A program made the translations under genes and the position numbers. Positions 18,620 through 53,881 of a stretch of 64,000 bases of DNA are shown in pieces. Below the pieces are notes generated by a model. The model was given only the letters and a program-made list of their open reading frames with translations, did no database searches and was not told where the DNA came from. Numbering within the stretch: position 1 is the stretch's first letter; the number at the start of each line of letters is the position of its first letter. Origin of the DNA: Candidatus Caldarchaeum sp. (lineage in GTDB: Archaea; Thermoproteota; Nitrososphaeria_A; Caldarchaeales; Caldarchaeaceae); contig JAWBRA010000005.1 of assembly GCA_038844785.1 (NCBI GenBank), forward strand, positions 1-64,000, written 5' to 3'.

Positions 18620-19852
18620 ATGCTGATAATCTGCCTCGTGAAGGGTGTTCCCGCCAGAACCACTCAAGTGGTAACAGTCTCGGGCGTGCTTAAGCGGGAG
18701 GAGATGGACCTTGTTCTAAACCCGCATGACGTAAAAGCAATTGAAGCCGCGTACTATGTCAAGAGGATGGTGGGTGGAAAAATCGTCGGCATAAGCATGG
18801 GTCCCGAGCCTAAGATAATGCCCATTATGAACGACTTGGCTGAGCCTAAGGAGGAGAGTTTTTACGTTCCAAGGATTTCGTTCGAAGGTTTTGACGAAAG
18901 AATCATTCTCAGCGACAGGCGGATGGCTGGGGCTGATACATGGGCCACGTCATACACGCTGGCATGCGGGATAAGCCGTTACATCCAAAACCATGTTGAA
19001 GCGGTTGACAAGCTTATAGAGGCTGTGAAAAACTCTAGCCCGGAAGAGGCTGCATCATTGGCGGAGAAGCTTTACATGGAAAACTTGTTGCCCAACTACA
19101 TCTACTCAAAGCTACCGACTGTCAGGGCTACCTTGGTTGAAAGGTTCTTAAAAGGCGAGGTTGGCAAGGAGGCGGTTATCTCCGAGCTTCAAAAACACAG
19201 ACAGAACATCACCAACTTCATAATTCTTACAGGCATGAAGACCAGCGACGGGGAAACAGGCAACACAGGTCCTCAGACAGCTGAAGCGTTGAGCGGCATG
19301 ATGGGTAGGCTGATACCCAGCATAGCTTTCGTCAGAGAGTTTGAGATATCACCCGACGCCACCACCATCGTAGCCGTCAGAAAAATCGGCAAGACTCTCC
19401 AAAAACTGCGTGTTTCGCCTCCATGCCTTCTTACGATAGACAGCCATTACGAGCCGAAAGTTCCTTACGCCTCTCTTCAAAGGAAAGTGAGGGCAAACAA
19501 CTACATGGGCAAAATGAGAAAAACCCTTGTCTGGAACGCTGACCATATAGGAGCGGACCCAAACAAAATCGGCTTCATGGGCTCGCCAACCATCGTCGGA
19601 CCCGGATACGAAATAGGGAAACCGCCTTCTCAAAAGTTTGTAGGCGAAACGCTTGTCTTTAAACAGAACGTCGGCAAAATAGAATGGAATGGGAAAGCTT
19701 ACGGGCCTTTCAACAAAGGTGACATGGCATCAAACCTTCCCGAAGATCTTTTGAGAAAGCTTAGAGAGGACGGTGTTATTGACTTCTTCAGCCTTGAAGA
19801 CTTGGTTGAAGAAATTTTCGGAGGGATCAAGGTTGTCCACAGAGCTGTATAA
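18620..19852 (+). CDS. etfB: electron transfer flavoprotein beta subunit (FixA-like), with insertion
   Basis: CLVKGVP, LNPHD, SMGP, LSDRRMAGADTWATS, GMKTSDGETGNTGP, GSPT. Confidence 0.88.
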   Translation: MLIICLVKGVPARTTQVVTVSGVLKREEMDLVLNPHDVKAIEAAYYVKRMVGGKIVGISMGPEPKIMPIMNDLAEPKEESFYVPRISFEGFDERIILSDRRMAGADTWATSYTLACGISRYIQNHVEAVDKLIEAVKNSSPEEAASLAEKLYMENLLPNYIYSKLPTVRATLVERFLKGEVGKEAVISELQKHRQNITNFIILTGMKTSDGETGNTGPQTAEALSGMMGRLIPSIAFVREFEISPDATTIVAVRKIGKTLQKLRVSPPCLLTIDSHYEPKVPYASLQRKVRANNYMGKMRKTLVWNADHIGADPNKIGFMGSPTIVGPGYEIGKPPSQKFVGETLVFKQNVGKIEWNGKAYGPFNKGDMASNLPEDLLRKLREDGVIDFFSLEDLVEEIFGGIKVVHRAV

Positions 19853-20921
19853 AGACGTATGGGCTTACTGTGTAAAAGAAGGAAACCATCTTACAAGGCC
19901 AAGCCTCGAGATACTTGCCGCAGCCCGTAAGGTCGCTGACAAGATAGGACAACAAGTTGCCGCCGTCATCATAGGCCATAACTTAGACGGTGTCCTGGAT
20001 GAGGCGATAGCGTTCGGAGCTGATAAAGTATTGTACGCCGATGAACCCTGGCTTAAAAACTATCTCTGCCTTCCGTACACGCGTGTGTTGTGCGAGATGG
20101 CTGAGAAGATGAAGCCTTACGCGATTCTTTTCGTAGCGGATGAGCTGGGTAGAGATCTTTCACCGCGCGTGGCTTACAGGCTTAACACCGGCCTTGCGAC
20201 AGACAACATAAACCTCGAAGTCGAGGACTATTATTTCGGCCCCACCAACACGACTTACAAAAACGTCCTAGCCCAGATAAGGCCTGACTTCGCTACGAGA
20301 GTAGCTAAAATATTCACGCCGAGACATAGGCCCCAGATAGCCAGCATAAGGCCTGGAAACTTCGAACCACTGCCCGAAGACCGTAGGAGGGTTGGTGAAA
20401 AAATCAGGTTTTACCCGACGCCTGTTCCAGAAGATTTCTCCGTCGAGGTCATTGAAGAGAGAGAGCTTCCTAAGCCCAGTGTCAACCTTGAGGAGGCCAA
20501 GGTTGTGGTCAGCATTGGGTTGGGAATACTTAAGGACGGTAGCGGAAACCCACGCAACCCACGGGAGGGTTTCATGCTGGCTAAGAAGCTTGTGGACTTG
20601 GTCAGGGAGAAGTTTGGTGTCCCGAGCGAGCTTGGAGCCACACGGGCGCTCATATACTCAGAGCTTAAAGAGCTTGAAGGCCTTGTTACGTCTGAAAGAC
20701 AGGTTGGACAGACAGGTAAGACCGTGTCACCCGACGTCTACATAGCTGCAGGCATAAGCGGCTCAGTCCAGCACAGAGTCGGAATGATCAAGTCGAAGAA
20801 AATAGTGGCTATAAACAACGACCCTAAAGCACCAATCTTCGAGATAGCCCACTATGGGGTGAAAGCAGACCTTTACGAGGCCCTGCCTAAAATCCTTGAA
20901 ATCATCGAGAGGAGGTACTAA
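19833..20921 (+). CDS. etfA: electron transfer flavoprotein alpha subunit (FixB-like)
   Basis: GRDLSPRVA..L.TGL..D, QVGQTGKTVSP, GISGSVQHRVGM, INNDPKAPIF. Confidence 0.92.
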   Translation: MSTELYKDVWAYCVKEGNHLTRPSLEILAAARKVADKIGQQVAAVIIGHNLDGVLDEAIAFGADKVLYADEPWLKNYLCLPYTRVLCEMAEKMKPYAILFVADELGRDLSPRVAYRLNTGLATDNINLEVEDYYFGPTNTTYKNVLAQIRPDFATRVAKIFTPRHRPQIASIRPGNFEPLPEDRRRVGEKIRFYPTPVPEDFSVEVIEERELPKPSVNLEEAKVVVSIGLGILKDGSGNPRNPREGFMLAKKLVDLVREKFGVPSELGATRALIYSELKELEGLVTSERQVGQTGKTVSPDVYIAAGISGSVQHRVGMIKSKKIVAINNDPKAPIFEIAHYGVKADLYEALPKILEIIERRY

Positions 20922-22618
20922 TGGCTGAGAAGTTTGATGCCGTGGTGGTGGGCGCCGGACCGGCTGGTTCCGCAGCCGCTTTGACGCTGGCCCGGAACGG
21001 ATACGACGTCTTGATGCTTGAAAAGACACAGCTGCCTGGACAGAGGAACGTGTCGGGAGGCGTTTTGTTCGGCGGATTCACTGATGGGCTGGGGCTTATA
21101 GACCTACTCCCCGAGTTTGAAGAGGAGGCGCCTCTCGAGAGGAAGATCTCGGGCCACGAGCTTTATCTGCTAAGCCAGCACGTAAGGAAAAACGGGGACT
21201 GGGAGTACAGGTTCGTCAAGTTCGATAAGAGGTCTTTATTGACAAAGGTTGGTTTAACCATGCTCAACGCATCAAGCGGACATGACTACACAGTCCTGAG
21301 GGCGCGTTTTGACAGGTGGATGGCTTCGAAAGCGGTTGAGGAAGGCGCTATGCTCGCCACGTCAAAAACGGTTGAAAACCTCATATTCAAAGACGGCAGG
21401 GTGGTGGGTGTTGTTACCCAGGATGAGGAGATATATGCTGACATGGTGATAGACTGCGGGGGGGTGACCTCACTTCTCCCCGAGAAGGCTGGAATAAGAC
21501 CTAGGCTTACTCCAGCTCAAGTCTACCATGGTGTAAAACAGGTTTTGAAGCTGTCGCCTCAGAAAATTGAAGAATTTTTCAAGCTTGACGACGGTTTCAA
21601 AACACTCTATCTGCTGGGGCCCTTTATGCACGGCATCGTCGGAGGCGGTTTCATATATCCCAACAAAGACACGCTATCTGTAGGTATAGTGGTTGGGCTT
21701 TCTTCTGCGCTACCCGTGTTCACAAGACGTTTCAACGAGTTGGGCAAACCCTTTGAGATTCTCGAGGAGATGATGTCTCATCCGTTCGTCAGCCAAATAT
21801 TACAGGAGGCAAAACCGGTCGAGTACTCGGCTCACAACATTCCAAAAGGCTACAAGGTCCTTCCCGACAAACCTTATGCTCCCGGCTTCCTACTGGCCGG
21901 CGACGCGTTAGGTGTTTTCTACAAGATTGGAGCCCTTATCGACGGAATCAGACCGGCTATAGCCTCCGGAATTTTAGCCGCGCGAACTTTCATCCACGCA
22001 AAGAACCAAGGCGACTTCAGCGCTTCGACCCTCTCGATTTACAGAAAGCTTCTAGAACCGTTGTACAGGCTTGTCTCAAAGTCGAGGACAAACAGCGCCC
22101 TGATTGAGCGTAAGATTTTCTATTCAACAAGCTGCGAGGCCATGTTTAAGCTTGGCTTGGGCAGAAAAGCGGTCGCAAAGATAGCAAACGTTGGAAACAA
22201 CGGCAAGGACATGATGCAGACTATACAGCAGATGACCGGGCTTCTCGACTATCAGGAAGACAAGCTTAGGTCGCACATAGAGGTAAACCAAGCTATGGCA
22301 TCTTCTGACAGGGAGAAAGCATGGATACCCATGTGCCCCGTCAACTGCTATACCCTGGTGACGGGTAAAGGTGTTTTCGCATCTTTCAAAGACCTTTACC
22401 GATACAACCTAGAGAGCCTGAAGAAGAATGGTTTGGATGAAAGGACGGCGGCTAGAAAGGCCTTGGAGACAACGTTGGAAGACATTAGGTTGGGGCAGCT
22501 GAAGTTCGACCACGTGGCTTGTGTGGCATGCGGGACGTGCGGCGTGATCGGACCGCCGTCCATGGTTAGGTTTGGCCATGAATGGAATGGGTACGGTGTT
22601 AAGTTTAAATATGGTTAA
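20921..22618 (+). CDS. FixC-type ETF:quinone oxidoreductase fused to FixX-like ferredoxin
   Basis: VVGAGPAG, GQRNVSGG, LRARFDRW, EYSAHNIP, LAGDA; C-terminal CPVNCY...CVACGTC...GYGVKFKYG. Confidence 0.88.
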   Translation: MAEKFDAVVVGAGPAGSAAALTLARNGYDVLMLEKTQLPGQRNVSGGVLFGGFTDGLGLIDLLPEFEEEAPLERKISGHELYLLSQHVRKNGDWEYRFVKFDKRSLLTKVGLTMLNASSGHDYTVLRARFDRWMASKAVEEGAMLATSKTVENLIFKDGRVVGVVTQDEEIYADMVIDCGGVTSLLPEKAGIRPRLTPAQVYHGVKQVLKLSPQKIEEFFKLDDGFKTLYLLGPFMHGIVGGGFIYPNKDTLSVGIVVGLSSALPVFTRRFNELGKPFEILEEMMSHPFVSQILQEAKPVEYSAHNIPKGYKVLPDKPYAPGFLLAGDALGVFYKIGALIDGIRPAIASGILAARTFIHAKNQGDFSASTLSIYRKLLEPLYRLVSKSRTNSALIERKIFYSTSCEAMFKLGLGRKAVAKIANVGNNGKDMMQTIQQMTGLLDYQEDKLRSHIEVNQAMASSDREKAWIPMCPVNCYTLVTGKGVFASFKDLYRYNLESLKKNGLDERTAARKALETTLEDIRLGQLKFDHVACVACGTCGVIGPPSMVRFGHEWNGYGVKFKYG

Positions 22619-22681: not shown

Positions 22682-23533
22682 ATGACCTACGCAAACCCCA
22701 GCGTTCTAGCGGAAGTTGAATGGCTGAAACAAAACCTGGCAGACCCCAGCATAAAAGTCGTGGAGGTTGACTACGACCCGAAGCTGGCTTACGAACAAGG
22801 CCATATACCCGGAGCCTTGCTGATCGACTGGAGGAAAGACATGAACAAGCAGGACGTCCGTGACATAATAGACGCCCGCGAGTTTGAAAACCTCATGTCA
22901 CGTTTAGGCATCTCAAACGACACCCACGTAATACTCTACGGCGACTACAACAACTGGTTTGCGACTTTCGCCTTCTGGGTCTTCGAAATGTACAACCATA
23001 AGAAAGTCCAGCTCCTCAACGGCGGAAGGAAAAAATGGATCGATTCCGGCGGAGAGCTCACAAAAGAAGTGCCAAAGCCAAAGCCAGCGGTATACCGTGT
23101 CGAGAAAATCAACCTTGAACAGCGGGTTTTCCTTGATGAGCTTTTGAAGGAGAAAATAGCGGATCCGAACTTGGTTTTAGTCGACGTTAGGTCACCTGCG
23201 GAGTTTACCGGCGAGATCACGGCTCCTCCGGAATATCCTAACGAGCATGCGCAAAGGGGCGGCCATATCCCAGGTGCGGTAAACATTCCTTGGGGGCAGG
23301 CGGTACGTGAAGACGGCACTTTCAAACCTGCTGAAGAGCTTAGGCAGCTCTACAGCTCAAAAGGAGTTACTCCGGATAAAAACGTAGTCACTTACTGCAG
23401 AATCGGCGAGAGAGCTAGCGTAACATGGTTTGTGTTGAAACATTTGGTTGGATACCAGCGTGTCCGAGTTTACGACGGCAGCTGGACAGAGTGGGGTAAC
23501 CTCGTTAGGTTTCCGATAGAGAGGCAGCGTTGA
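22682..23533 (+). CDS. tandem-domain rhodanese (thiosulfate sulfurtransferase, CysA-type)
   Basis: GHIPGA twice, active-site loop YCRIGER, YDGSWTEWGN. Confidence 0.93.
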   Translation: MTYANPSVLAEVEWLKQNLADPSIKVVEVDYDPKLAYEQGHIPGALLIDWRKDMNKQDVRDIIDAREFENLMSRLGISNDTHVILYGDYNNWFATFAFWVFEMYNHKKVQLLNGGRKKWIDSGGELTKEVPKPKPAVYRVEKINLEQRVFLDELLKEKIADPNLVLVDVRSPAEFTGEITAPPEYPNEHAQRGGHIPGAVNIPWGQAVREDGTFKPAEELRQLYSSKGVTPDKNVVTYCRIGERASVTWFVLKHLVGYQRVRVYDGSWTEWGNLVRFPIERQR

Positions 23534-24189
23534 AGTCTGCGGATGGATGTTTCTTACCGGAGGACAGGGGCTACGTCGTTGAACACGACCTATGGTTCAA
23601 GAACGTTGCGGAGAACAGGTATTTGGTGGGAGCGTGCCAACCATTTCTTTTCATGGCAGGCAGGCCTAAAAAAGTAAACGTAAGAGGTAAAGGAACCTTA
23701 GTCAGACGGAACACAGCCATTGCCCTTGTTGTTTCGTCAAAGATGGAGGGCGCTTTGCTGTCGCCTGTTGACTTAGAAATACTGCATGTTAACGATTTTG
23801 TGTTGCAAAACCCCGAGGTTTTAGCTGACGACCCTTATGAAAAAGGATGGCTAGCTGAAATAATCTGCCACTCAACCCCTGCATTAACAGGTGCGGAAAC
23901 AGCCTCCGTGTTATATGAGCAGTTGAACAGCCGGCGTGGGGTTGTCTGCTTCGACATAGTCCCACATTACCAGATGACTGTGTTTGGGGAAAGCTGTGAG
24001 AGTATTTTGACTAAGATAGGTAATTTCATGAGTCAACACGTGGGTGTAGGCGAGACGCTTTACGTTGTGACGCAGGACCCGGCTACAGAGGTGGACATGA
24101 TTAACTGGGCTGAGAAAACAGGTCAGCATCTCCTAGGCATGAAAAGGTTTGGAAAAACCATTCACGTAATGTACAAGCGCATGGTTTAA
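23530..24189 (+). CDS. LbpA/GcvH-like lipoyl-carrier domain fused to TusA/SirA-like domain
   Basis: aa 1-140: GCFLPED, HDLW, VVSSK71, SPV..I..VN, NPEVLADDPYEKGWL, terminal C140; aa 145-219: GESC156, GETLYVVTQDPATEVDMINWAEKTGQ (TusA pattern); start overlaps the rhodanese stop. Confidence 0.78.
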   Translation: MKSADGCFLPEDRGYVVEHDLWFKNVAENRYLVGACQPFLFMAGRPKKVNVRGKGTLVRRNTAIALVVSSKMEGALLSPVDLEILHVNDFVLQNPEVLADDPYEKGWLAEIICHSTPALTGAETASVLYEQLNSRRGVVCFDIVPHYQMTVFGESCESILTKIGNFMSQHVGVGETLYVVTQDPATEVDMINWAEKTGQHLLGMKRFGKTIHVMYKRMV

Positions 24190-24725
24190 GCTCGCCACCA
24201 TTCAAACATCACATACGTCACCTTATCTTCAGCGGGAACCGCTACTGTAAAATATTTTTTCACCGAGGTAGCGAGCCTTCCGGACCGTATTATCTCCAGA
24301 GCTGAAATCTTTCCATTCTGTTCCTTAACCTGTATGATGAATGGGGCGTGGTCGATGCCTGGTCCATGCCGGTAGACTGCGAAATCGCTGCCAAACTTTA
24401 TCCCGGGGAGAACTATGAAACCCCTATTCCTCAAATCGCTGTAAACTGTGTATTTTTTCAACAGATTCTCGTCCTGGGCTATGGCATGTTTTTCCAGCTC
24501 TTCCGCCGTTAGTTCCTTGCCTGAGCTGAACACTTTCAGAAGGCCGTTTCTATGAAGGTACAGTGCTTCCAGCAAGTCCAAAACGAGGGGTGCGTCGAAG
24601 TTCATGTCCCTTGGCTTGGGTATGCCCAAGGGTTTTCCGAAAAAACCTTTCCTGTAAAGATCTCTGGCCTCTTCCACGTCCCATACTATTACGCTGTCCT
24701 TTAACAGCTCTCCCCGTGCCAACAA
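24186..24725 (-). CDS. endA: tRNA-splicing endonuclease catalytic subunit
   Basis: VYSDLRNRG, GIKFGSDFAVY..GPGIDHAPF, RLATSVKK; GFFGKPLGIPKP Crenarchaea-specific loop. Confidence 0.92.
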   Translation of the reverse strand: MLARGELLKDSVIVWDVEEARDLYRKGFFGKPLGIPKPRDMNFDAPLVLDLLEALYLHRNGLLKVFSSGKELTAEELEKHAIAQDENLLKKYTVYSDLRNRGFIVLPGIKFGSDFAVYRHGPGIDHAPFIIQVKEQNGKISALEIIRSGRLATSVKKYFTVAVPAEDKVTYVMFEWWRA

Positions 24726-51644: not shown

Positions 51645-52634
51645 ATGGCCGAGCAGGAGACTGAAGTAGACAATGCAAGGCTTCTGACTTTTTTCAGAAA
51701 AATGGTTGAGATAAGGCTTTTCGAAGAAAGGGTTGAAAAGCTTTATCGCGAAGGCAAGATAGCCGGTCCAACACATCTCTACGTAGGCCAGGAGGCGGTT
51801 GCGGTGGGTGTGATCGAAGCTCTCGACAAAGACGACGTAATAATCTCAACCTACAGGGGGCATGGACACGGCTTGGCCAGAGGCGTTCCCATGCGGGCTG
51901 TGTTGGGCGAAATAATGGGAAAGTCTATTGGAACATGCAAAGGCCTTGGAGGCTCTATGCATGCTCCAATAAGCGTTGAGAGAAAGATACTGTTTGCCAC
52001 AGCGATAGTTGGCAGCGGTCTTCCAATAGCTGTCGGCGTGGCACTAGGCTTCAAACAACGTGGCGAAAAGAATTTGGCAGCAGTGTTTTTCGGCGACGGA
52101 GCTGTCAACACAGGAGCCTTCCACGAAGCATTGAATTTAGCGGCTGTCTGGAGGCTACCGGTCCTATTCGTCTGCGAAAACAACCTTTACGCAATGAGCA
52201 CAGCCCTTTCCAGAGCCTTCGCAGGAGAAAGCATAGCCGCTCGAAGCTCGAGCTATGGTATCAAAACCTTCACAGTCATGGGCAACGACGTCGTCGAAGT
52301 ATACACCACAGCATGTTCAGCAGCTTCATACATACGGGAAGGACGGGGTCCTGCTTTCATCGAATGCAGAACATACCGTCAGAAGGGACACGGCGGATAC
52401 GACTTGGGAACATGGTATAGACCGAGAGAGGAGATTGAAGAATGGTTGATGAAAGACCCTATAGAGATGTTGTTCAACCGTTTGAAGGCTGACGGGTTGC
52501 TTGACGAACAGAAAAGAAAGGCGTTGGAAGAGGAGGTTAACAAGATGATTGACGGCGTCGTTGAAGAAGTGCTCAAAGCCCCCTTAACTGATTTCAGGGT
52601 TTTGGAAGAGTTTGTCTACTCATCGAAAACGTGA
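51645..52634 (+). CDS. TPP-dependent 2-oxoacid/acetoin dehydrogenase E1 alpha
   Basis: HLYVGQEA, YRGHGH, GGSMH, GDGA...ENN, TYRQKGH. Confidence 0.92.
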   Translation: MAEQETEVDNARLLTFFRKMVEIRLFEERVEKLYREGKIAGPTHLYVGQEAVAVGVIEALDKDDVIISTYRGHGHGLARGVPMRAVLGEIMGKSIGTCKGLGGSMHAPISVERKILFATAIVGSGLPIAVGVALGFKQRGEKNLAAVFFGDGAVNTGAFHEALNLAAVWRLPVLFVCENNLYAMSTALSRAFAGESIAARSSSYGIKTFTVMGNDVVEVYTTACSAASYIREGRGPAFIECRTYRQKGHGGYDLGTWYRPREEIEEWLMKDPIEMLFNRLKADGLLDEQKRKALEEEVNKMIDGVVEEVLKAPLTDFRVLEEFVYSSKT

Positions 52635-52640
52635 AAGGCC

Positions 52641-53639
52641 ATGGGTGTTAGGGAGATCACATACGTGGAAGCCTTGAACGAAGCTTTGAAGGAGGAGATG
52701 CGTCGAGACAGTTCTGTGATAGTTTTCGGCGAAGAAGTAGCTTTAGCCGGAGGCGTCTACAAGGTAACTAAAGACCTTCTGAAAGAATTCGGCCCTACAA
52801 GGGTTATGGACACGCCTATATCGGAAATAGCCATAATAGGTGCTGCGATAGGGGCTGCGTTGAATGGCTTAAGGCCTGTCGCTGAGCTTATGTTTTTCGA
52901 CTTCGCCGGCATAGCCTTTGACCAGATAGTGACGCATGCTTCCAAGATTCGTTTCACATCAGGAGGGCAGGTCAAGCTGCCTCTAGTCATCCGCACCCAG
53001 TACAGCCTTGGACGTTCATACGGTAGTCAGCACACGCAGTTTCTGACGGCTTCCTTCATGCAGGCGCCTGGGCTGAAAATAGTTCTTCCATCAACACCCT
53101 ATGACGCAAAAGGCCTCCTCAAGTCTGCAATCCGTGATGACGACCCGGTTCTTTTCATAGAATCTGGGGCACTCTACGTCAACAGGAGCTACTATGGATA
53201 TAAAGGACCGGTCCCCGAGGAAGAATATCTGCTCCCGATAGGTAAAGCCGACGTCAAGGCTGAGGGGGATGATGTGACTGTTGTCGCTCTGTCGCGAACG
53301 GTGTCTGAGGCCATGGCCGCCGCCGGTCAGCTGAAAGAAGAGGGGTTGAGGGCCGAGGTAGTGGACCTGAGGACGGTTCAGCCGATGGATTACGAGACTG
53401 TCTTAAGGTCTGTAAGGAAGACGAACCGCTTAATCATAGCGGAGGACAGTGTAAAAACTTGCGGCGTGTCGGCGGAGGTAGCCGCATATGTTGCAGAAAA
53501 CGCCTTAGACGCCCTTGAAGCCCCTGTGATAAGGCTTAACTCCCCACCCATGCCGGCACCACAATCACAGCCTCTCGAAAGACAGTACATGGTTACTGCT
53601 GACAAGATAGTTGAGTCCGTCAGAAAACTTTGTCTCTAG
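52641..53639 (+). CDS. 2-oxoacid/acetoin dehydrogenase E1 beta
   Basis: FGEEV, DTPISE, GLRPVAE, QHTQ, PGLK, DLRT. Confidence 0.92.
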   Translation: MGVREITYVEALNEALKEEMRRDSSVIVFGEEVALAGGVYKVTKDLLKEFGPTRVMDTPISEIAIIGAAIGAALNGLRPVAELMFFDFAGIAFDQIVTHASKIRFTSGGQVKLPLVIRTQYSLGRSYGSQHTQFLTASFMQAPGLKIVLPSTPYDAKGLLKSAIRDDDPVLFIESGALYVNRSYYGYKGPVPEEEYLLPIGKADVKAEGDDVTVVALSRTVSEAMAAAGQLKEEGLRAEVVDLRTVQPMDYETVLRSVRKTNRLIIAEDSVKTCGVSAEVAAYVAENALDALEAPVIRLNSPPMPAPQSQPLERQYMVTADKIVESVRKLCL

Positions 53640-53881
53640 ATTTTCTGGATCTCCGCTATTACCTCCCCCACACTGACCTCGTCCCCAACCTTGTGAAGTA
53701 TCCTGACTATTTTGCCGTCCACCTCTGAAGGGATTTCGACAGCGGCTTTCTCCGTCTCAACGATAACTACGACCTCGCCCTTTTTTACTTGGTCGCCCTC
53801 CTTCTTCAGCCATTCAGCTATCTTGCCCGACTCCATCGCAACATCTATCCTAGGCAGTATGAGCTTATACAGCTCGGGCAT
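53636..53881 (-). CDS. stand-alone lipoyl-domain protein
   Basis: LP.....MESGKI.EWLKKEGD.V..GE....VETEKA.VEI.S..DG E2-type lipoyl domain; 81 aa, ends right after the domain. Confidence 0.88.
   Translation of the reverse strand: MPELYKLILPRIDVAMESGKIAEWLKKEGDQVKKGEVVVIVETEKAAVEIPSEVDGKIVRILHKVGDEVSVGEVIAEIQKI

Follow-up and report, generated by a model that had tools for sequence, protein, structure and literature searches.

The window analysed here is the whole of a 64,000-nucleotide stretch from a Candidatus Caldarchaeum sp. genome (NCBI GenBank assembly GCA_038844785.1, contig JAWBRA010000005.1, positions 1 to 64,000 of the forward strand). It encodes a 219-amino-acid protein that joins a domain resembling the lipoate-binding protein LbpA to a domain resembling the sulfur carrier TusA, directly downstream of a gene for a two-domain rhodanese. 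The TTG start codon of the fusion gene overlaps the TGA stop codon of the rhodanese gene, and close fusion homologues have the same MK... N-terminus, which supports the assigned start. The features of the two genes are as follows.

22682..23533, plus strand: two-domain rhodanese, 283 amino acids, the partner gene (Pfam Rhodanese in two stretches, E = 4.5e-40)
23396-23398, plus strand: codon of rhodanese Cys239, in the active-site loop C239-RIGERA
23530..24189, plus strand: LbpA-like/TusA-like fusion gene, 219 amino acids (open reading frame listing and sequence)
23530..23958, plus strand: N-domain, residues 1-143, LbpA-type H-protein fold (Pfam, Foldseek, LbpA alignment, tree)
23548..23550, plus strand: Cys7 codon TGT, N-terminal member of the LbpA-type cysteine pair (conserved in 39/40; LbpA hallmark)
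23740..23742, plus strand: Lys71 codon AAG, the lipoyl-lysine position (aligns with the LbpA lysine; in the predicted rhodanese interface)
23947..23949, plus strand: Cys140 codon TGC, C-terminal member of the pair, just ahead of the TusA domain (39/40; LbpA alignment)
23959..24186, plus strand: C-domain, residues 144-219, TusA fold with CESI replacing CPxP (Foldseek, Pfam, relatives)
23995..23997, plus strand: Cys156 codon TGT, TusA persulfide-cysteine position at the N-terminus of helix 1 (invariant; model)

The four residues of the fusion lie in the contexts GCFLPED (C7), VSSKMEG (K71), GVVCF (C140) and GESCESIL (C156), and position 68, three residues ahead of the lysine (Lys-3), is a valine. 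The initial annotation of this locus had listed C7, K71, C140, GESCES in place of CPxP and Val at Lys-3, and all of these read as claimed. An AlphaFold2 model of the fusion monomer, computed from an alignment of 12 sequences, reached a predicted local distance difference test (pLDDT) score of 93.9 and a predicted template modelling (pTM) score of 0.86.

The N-domain has the H-protein fold, as had been proposed from the sequence. Pfam GCV_H matches residues 15-116 (E = 6.1e-14), and a Foldseek search against the PDB places the domain next to Thermus GcvH (1onl_A, template modelling (TM) score by target 0.89, E = 5e-11). Approximately residues 58-77 make up the former lipoyl hairpin. In NCBIfam scans GcvH-related models and TusA are matched below threshold, and the GcvH equivalog models are missed by a wide margin (TIGR00527, 39.6 bits vs a cut-off of 115.85; NF002270, 49.8 vs 117). 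Cao et al. 2018 (PMC6067878) give as the hallmark of LbpA a cysteine pair with one member close to each terminus, a pair lacking in GcvH; the same paper and a preprint (10.64898/2026.10.01.755906) describe the lipoyl lysine as strictly conserved in both LbpA and GcvH. The preprint also presents LbpA models in which the two cysteines are near enough for a disulfide, and reports the pair to be dispensable for recognition by the ligase. By the cysteine-pair hallmark, the earlier assignment of this domain to the LbpA type and not to GcvH stands.

Sequence comparisons place the domain on the same side. The LbpA encoded elsewhere in the host genome aligns with the fusion N-domain at 34% identity (E = 1e-20), and C7, K71 and C140 of the fusion fall on its Cys, Lys (ESAKYMG) and Cys. 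An exhaustive search returned 239 proteins at E ≤ 1e-3; among the best 150 of these 239, the best single-domain matches are LbpA-like (GC..PEDL, ESGKW and a C-terminal Cys), and canonical GcvH (ESVKA) scores below them. We also built an N-domain tree of 59 rows, hand-picked from the search matches and thus not a full sample, comprising 40 fusions, 10 LbpA-like proteins, 4 proteins of about 145 amino acids without the cysteines and 5 GcvH. A branch with support 81/88, recovered in 79% of bootstrap trees, has all 40 fusion N-domains on one side, and a long branch separates off the five canonical GcvH as a starred group (100/96). Between the fusions and GcvH lie the LbpA-like rows, without a firm position; only 28% of bootstrap trees unite them in a single group. 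Together, these data support an LbpA-like, not a canonical GcvH, identity for the N-domain.

The C-domain folds as TusA, again in line with the initial annotation. By Foldseek it matches E. coli TusA (3lvj_C, TM-score by target 0.83, E = 1.4e-4) and 1dcj (TM-score 0.77) in the PDB, and in the AlphaFold2 model helix 1 of the domain begins at residue 156. At the sequence level this copy has only a weak Pfam TusA match over residues 171-212 (E = 4e-4, 20.6 bits), which lies under the 28.6-bit cut-off. Within a 40-row family alignment, described below, PF01206 (TusA) is matched by 37 of the 40 members at E ≤ 1e-3 (best 6.7e-14) and GCV_H by all 40. The usual TusA signature is CPxP; the fusion reads C-E-S-I at this site, and a proline follows C156 in 5 of the 40 rows, with a complete CPxP in 2. 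In sHdr (sulfur-oxidizing heterodisulfide reductase-like) organisms, TusA exchanges sulfur with rhodaneses, according to PMC11094781.

The fusion is a conserved family, found mostly in Thermoproteota/Nitrososphaerota. A word-based search turned up 11 relatives with 50-90% identity, of which six carry the names of Candidatus Caldarchaeum metagenome-assembled genomes (MAGs), and the ESM Atlas holds 8 clusters that pair GCV_H with TusA, mostly from Archaea/Nitrososphaerota. Source names of the more distant cluster members include Bathyarchaeia, Thermoproteota and Aigarchaeota MAGs, and one MAG labelled Saccharimonadales. A full-length fusion occurs in 32 of 76 genomes of the window's class, concentrated in two of its families (f1, 17/18; f2, 15/19; f3, 0/4; f4, 0/35), and in 5 of 341 genomes outside the class, belonging to four families (401-genome phylum sample). 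The architecture is already known to automatic annotation, some members carrying the JGI label 'glycine cleavage system H lipoate-binding protein/TusA-related sulfurtransferase'. The earlier statement that no characterised example is known agrees with our full-text literature search, which found no paper describing or testing the fusion, a search that did not cover the supplements of PMC6067878 and PMC11094781, which could list such fusions. Longer fused forms, for instance a triple fusion of rhodanese, LbpA and TusA, were not found at E ≤ 1e-3 among 805 candidates, which we grade as weak evidence, and seven longer or odd search matches carry only GCV_H or TusA domains.

To describe conservation we used two sets. 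The 40-row alignment comprises the 30 proteins of 215-316 amino acids that span both domains among the best 150 search matches, the window protein and nine full-length close relatives; partial or shorter matches such as P0010, P0011, P0031 and P0034 were left out. The second set consists of the copies from 36 genomes, namely 31 of the 32 fusion-bearing class genomes (all but G031) and the 5 from outside the class; some 30 distant metagenomic representatives lie outside this neighbourhood sample. In the alignment C156 is invariant (40/40), bearing out the earlier expectation that it is conserved in homologues, and C7 and C140 are each present in 39 of 40 rows, P0036 being the single row without both. 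The three cysteines are also kept throughout the 36 genome copies (C156, 36/36), although one of the 36 N-termini lies outside the printed alignment and its cysteine is visible in the open reading frame.

Three near-invariant cysteines could also be read as ligands. Most of the 40 aligned members have D, H or E at position 146, and the three cysteines plus Asp/His/Glu146 might coordinate a metal, or an Fe-S cluster, between the two domains as a bridge with a structural or redox-active role; the rigid two-domain packing predicted for the monomer (pTM 0.86) would suit such a site. We regard this as a long shot. Stand-alone LbpA proteins, which have no TusA domain, carry C7 and C140 as well (single-domain matches; PMC6067878), C156 sits exactly at the TusA persulfide-cysteine site, and the Pfam and NCBIfam scans matched no known metal-binding motif.

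The lipoyl-lysine column behaves differently from the cysteines. It holds R in 22, K in 16, V in 1 and T in 1 of the 40 aligned rows, and R in 21, K in 12, N in 2 and V in 1 of the 36 genome copies; within the window's own genus, 5 copies have K and 7 have R. At Lys-3, Glu is present in 28 of 40 rows; members of the Caldarchaeum clade have Val, Ile, Ser or Thr there instead. As lysine and arginine alternate even within a genus, lipoate cannot be a conserved working part of the family. From the alignments, a lipoate-carrying residue would not be expected to alternate with Arg at such a rate, considering that LbpA and GcvH keep the lysine strictly. The initial annotation had cast the lipoyl arm as the acceptor of sulfur and had taken variability of K71 among homologues as evidence against that role; as a conserved function, the role falls with the composition of this column.

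A narrower version of that proposal deserves separate treatment. Lys71 of this particular copy may be lipoylated, with sulfane sulfur passing to the dithiol arm from either the rhodanese or C156 and with the Arg-bearing relatives being derived, lipoate-free forms. This copy has K71, in register with the LbpA lysine, the host genome has an LplA-like ligase beside its LbpA as well as other lipoyl proteins, and the complex model described below sets the K71-bearing hairpin against the rhodanese. Dihydrolipoate is moreover a known in vitro acceptor for rhodanese, as cited in PMC6067878. We nevertheless consider this version unlikely. The alternation of K and R within the genus and across the tree is unexpected for an essential modified lysine, all the more as LbpA and GcvH conserve it strictly in the sources cited above (PMC6067878; preprint 10.64898/2026.10.01.755906), the Glu at Lys-3 is lost in the Caldarchaeum clade, and the fusion gene stands beside neither ligase nor shdr genes.

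The sHdr genes of the host genome lie elsewhere. The fusion gene adjoins neither the ligase nor any shdr gene, and the shdr-lbpA-ligase cluster is on another contig (C6, L009:8817-15695). This cluster encodes a DsrE-like protein, a TusA with CPMP, an LplA-like ligase and a 143-amino-acid LbpA, and continues on the same contig with DsrE, HdrC1, HdrB1, HdrA, HdrC2 and a membrane protein. Of the 76 class genomes, 4 yielded sHdrB1 (G000, which is the window's genome, G006, G017 and G025), as did 1 of the 5 from outside (G411); among the 37 fusion-bearing genomes it was found in 4. Given this rarity among fusion-bearing genomes, a link to sHdr is not general, and the association with sHdr systems drawn in the initial annotation does not extend to the family. 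A PF01597 search of the host genome (95% complete) gave three matches only, namely LbpA, the fusion and a small lipoyl domain; it found no canonical GcvH of about 140 amino acids in this genome, and congeners have one such match each.

Several side observations concern these genes. Beside the contig C6 shdr cluster lies a 928-amino-acid molybdopterin oxidoreductase with a 4Fe-4S/membrane subunit, and the sHdrB1 of G006 is 100% identical to the copy of the host genome. The third GCV_H-model match is an 81-amino-acid stand-alone lipoyl-domain protein (VETEKA) encoded in the window at 53636-53881 on the minus strand, convergent to the E1 alpha-like/beta-like genes of a 2-oxoacid dehydrogenase (51645-53639, plus strand).

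The fusion gene is closely tied to the rhodanese gene. In the 36 genomes whose neighbourhoods were compared, a rhodanese homologue lies within 231 base pairs of the fusion in 29 and 4.4 kb away in one. Outside the class the rhodanese is adjacent in 4 of 5 genomes and on the opposite strand in three of those four. One of these, genome G341 (L085:4178-12098), has the fusion and an opposite-strand rhodanese in the middle of a NADH dehydrogenase (nuo-like) operon, between NuoI-like and NuoJ-like genes. Adjacency on opposite strands and inside a nuo operon indicates that the link with the rhodanese has survived rearrangement. In two outside-class genomes (L087:8868-9407 and L089:2141-2533) the open reading frame of the fusion-adjacent rhodanese is shortened, to 179 and 130 amino acids, which could reflect a frameshift, a pseudogene or an assembly error. 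Across the class of 76 genomes the rhodanese is present in 35 and the fusion in 32, and all 32 fusion genomes have the rhodanese; G006 has neither. The conserved adjacency and co-occurrence of the fusion with the two-domain rhodanese are strong.

The active-site loop of the rhodanese reads CRIGER[AS]S across 18 aligned copies, with Cys239 and the CRIGER core invariant, and PMC11094781 treats a CRxGxR-type loop as the classical rhodanese motif. In-frame TGA/TAG codons in the rhodanese of some genomes were considered as selenocysteine codons and rejected, being terminal stops caught at the ends of the alignments. Contigs of two metatranscriptome libraries cross the junction between the rhodanese and fusion genes, which is weak evidence, as DNA can occur in such libraries; no such contig covers the downstream endonuclease gene, which is uninformative.

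The loop type and the genomic distribution can also be brought under a different heading. The C7/C140 dithiol might act as a thiol-disulfide device that reduces the persulfide brought by the rhodanese and the TusA domain, frees sulfide and ends as a disulfide, making the pair a thiosulfate-to-sulfide system with an assimilatory or detoxifying role and not a carrier. A classical CRxGxR-type loop (PMC11094781) fits such a system, as do the LbpA models with a pair close enough for a disulfide (the preprint cited above) and the occurrence of the fusion/rhodanese pair in genomes in which sHdrB1 was not found. Against it, no disulfide reductase is linked to the pair, and the non-rhodanese neighbours vary by lineage, with Etf/FixCX in part of f1 and an ABC transporter or a SIS-domain protein in f2. 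We rate this alternative as improbable.

Structure prediction brings the two proteins together. The complex was folded from the 18-row rhodanese alignment and the 40-row fusion alignment, and it scored an ipSAE (interaction prediction score from aligned errors) of 0.76 in three runs, with a best value of 0.00 among three controls. This mark is reached by 58 of 80 solved complexes and by 2 of 110 mismatched pairs, counts that hold only roughly here as custom alignments were used. At least 98% of contacts recur between runs, and the partner's pLDDT is 89 or more. On the fusion side the modelled interface comprises residues 58-63, 66, 68, 70-75 and 77 of the hairpin, together with 42-43, 50, 52, 136, 147, 149, 166 and 169-170; on the rhodanese side it comprises residues 32, 34-36, 39-40, 88-89, 116-117, 120-121, 123-127, 179, 183-184 and 186. 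The contacting segments vary together in 30 genomes: rhodanese 121-125 reads DSGGE in f1 and EERE/EDRP elsewhere, and fusion 58-61 is basic (RR/KK) in f1 and acidic or neutral elsewhere. This co-variation may stem from a single evolutionary event and lends weak support to the interface. Judging from the model, the fusion probably binds the rhodanese. The connection to the rhodanese made in the initial annotation is thus borne out by adjacency, by co-occurrence and, in prediction, by the complex.

An interface built from the hairpin and not from the cysteines would also be expected of a regulatory subunit, one that blocks or gates the active-site cleft of the rhodanese by means of the former lipoyl hairpin, thereby controlling its activity, and itself carries no sulfur. 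Such a role leaves three conserved cysteines and a TusA domain with an invariant active cysteine unexplained, and we give it very little credence.

On balance we lean, by a modest degree, towards reading the fusion and the neighbouring two-domain rhodanese as a cysteine-based sulfur carrier pair that is derived from LbpA, does not depend obligatorily on lipoate and operates independently of sHdr. Starting from the observed folds, the conserved cysteines, the variable lysine and the gene linkage, and from the modelled complex, we infer a persulfide chemistry, a direction of transfer and a final acceptor along the following lines. The N-domain would have come from the LbpA branch of the H-protein family and would have retained the cysteine pair C7/C140. 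The former lipoyl hairpin, with Lys or Arg at its tip, would have turned into a docking element for the rhodanese. Rhodanese Cys239 would take up sulfane sulfur, for example from thiosulfate, and the persulfide would then move from the rhodanese to C156 and to the C7/C140 pair of the carrier. The carrier cysteines would store the sulfur or deliver it to a downstream acceptor. Passage of sulfur from C156 to C7/C140 within one polypeptide is plausible. More tentatively, and with less confidence than we place in the carrier pair as such, the fusion may be a lipoate-independent LbpA descendant in which the hairpin is the rhodanese dock and C7/C140, fed by the TusA cysteine, form the real sulfur-binding site.

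Several observations weigh against a carrier pair of this kind. The modelled interface names none of C156, C7, C140 and rhodanese C239; with the catalytic cysteines missing from it, the modelled pose does not represent a sulfur-transfer geometry. The rhodanese is absent from the ±1.5 kb fusion locus in 6 of the 36 genomes, all of genus g6, in which ±9 kb loci lack a rhodanese in 4 of 6 and the rhodaneses lie on contigs other than that of the fusion. Conversely, three genomes have the rhodanese and no fusion (G022, which is 66% complete, G044 and G046). The genomes are related and not independent, and raw counts therefore overstate the co-occurrence, clean as the pattern is. This copy has Lys71, which makes its lipoylation possible, and the D/H/E residue at position 146 can be read together with the three cysteines as a metal site.

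We also looked at the remaining neighbours of the pair. Upstream of the rhodanese, at 18620-22618 on the plus strand, the window encodes an EtfB-like protein (unusually long at 410 amino acids), an EtfA-like protein (382 amino acids) and a FixC/ETF-QO-like flavoprotein, the last of 565 amino acids with a ferredoxin-like tail. Etf/FixCX were considered as partners of the pair and are unsupported in that role: they adjoin it in the f1 genera g1, g2 and g4 and not in g3, and they were found neither beside it in f2 nor among the listed neighbours of the five outside genomes, a pattern that we read as local synteny. Downstream, a tRNA-splicing endonuclease gene (24186-24725, minus strand) converges on the fusion gene with the stop codons overlapping by 4 bases, an arrangement kept throughout family f1. 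We also considered whether the pair stands in for an absent cysteine desulfurase and rejected this, as a full-length Aminotran_5 match (E = 2e-150) is present in the host genome.

In sHdr sulfur oxidation LbpA proteins play a central part, and the fusion bears on the role of their cysteine pair. The family amounts to a natural experiment in which the cysteine pair is kept and a TusA cysteine is fused to it, with the lipoyl lysine drifting to Arg and the protein as a whole linked to a rhodanese in lineages in which sHdrB1 was not found. Two ideas thereby become testable, namely that an LbpA scaffold can carry sulfur on cysteines and that a lipoyl hairpin can serve as a rhodanese dock. If the more tentative reading, with the hairpin as rhodanese dock and C7/C140 as the sulfur-binding site, is true, the fusion would define a new type of cytoplasmic sulfur-carrier module that occurs widely in Nitrososphaerota without depending on sHdr, and would explain the purpose of the conserved cysteine pair in LbpA proteins. 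The analysis also draws attention to a so far unstudied module for sulfur trafficking in Caldarchaeales and other Thermoproteota.

Among known systems, LbpA is the nearest to the N-domain. The fusion shares with it the H-protein fold, the N-/C-terminal cysteine pair and the GC..P.D N-terminal motif, but differs in its fused TusA domain, in a lipoyl lysine that is not conserved across the family, and in being encoded apart from shdr and ligase genes and present where sHdrB1 was not found. GcvH has the same fold and the Pfam GCV_H match in common with the fusion, which departs from it in the LbpA cysteine pair, the lack of Glu at Lys-3 in this copy, the sub-threshold equivalog scores and the separation in the tree. 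The C-domain shares with TusA the fold, the invariant cysteine at the start of helix 1 and a DDP-type motif, whereas its CPxP is replaced, it is not free-standing, and this copy scores below the Pfam cut-off. DsrC, mentioned in the introduction of PMC11094781, is a two-cysteine carrier that receives sulfur via TusA and DsrEFH. Its fold is unrelated to that of the fusion and we claim no homology; the likeness is one of analogy only, both being small proteins with a conserved cysteine pair that is fed, in the case of the fusion putatively, by TusA-type carriers.

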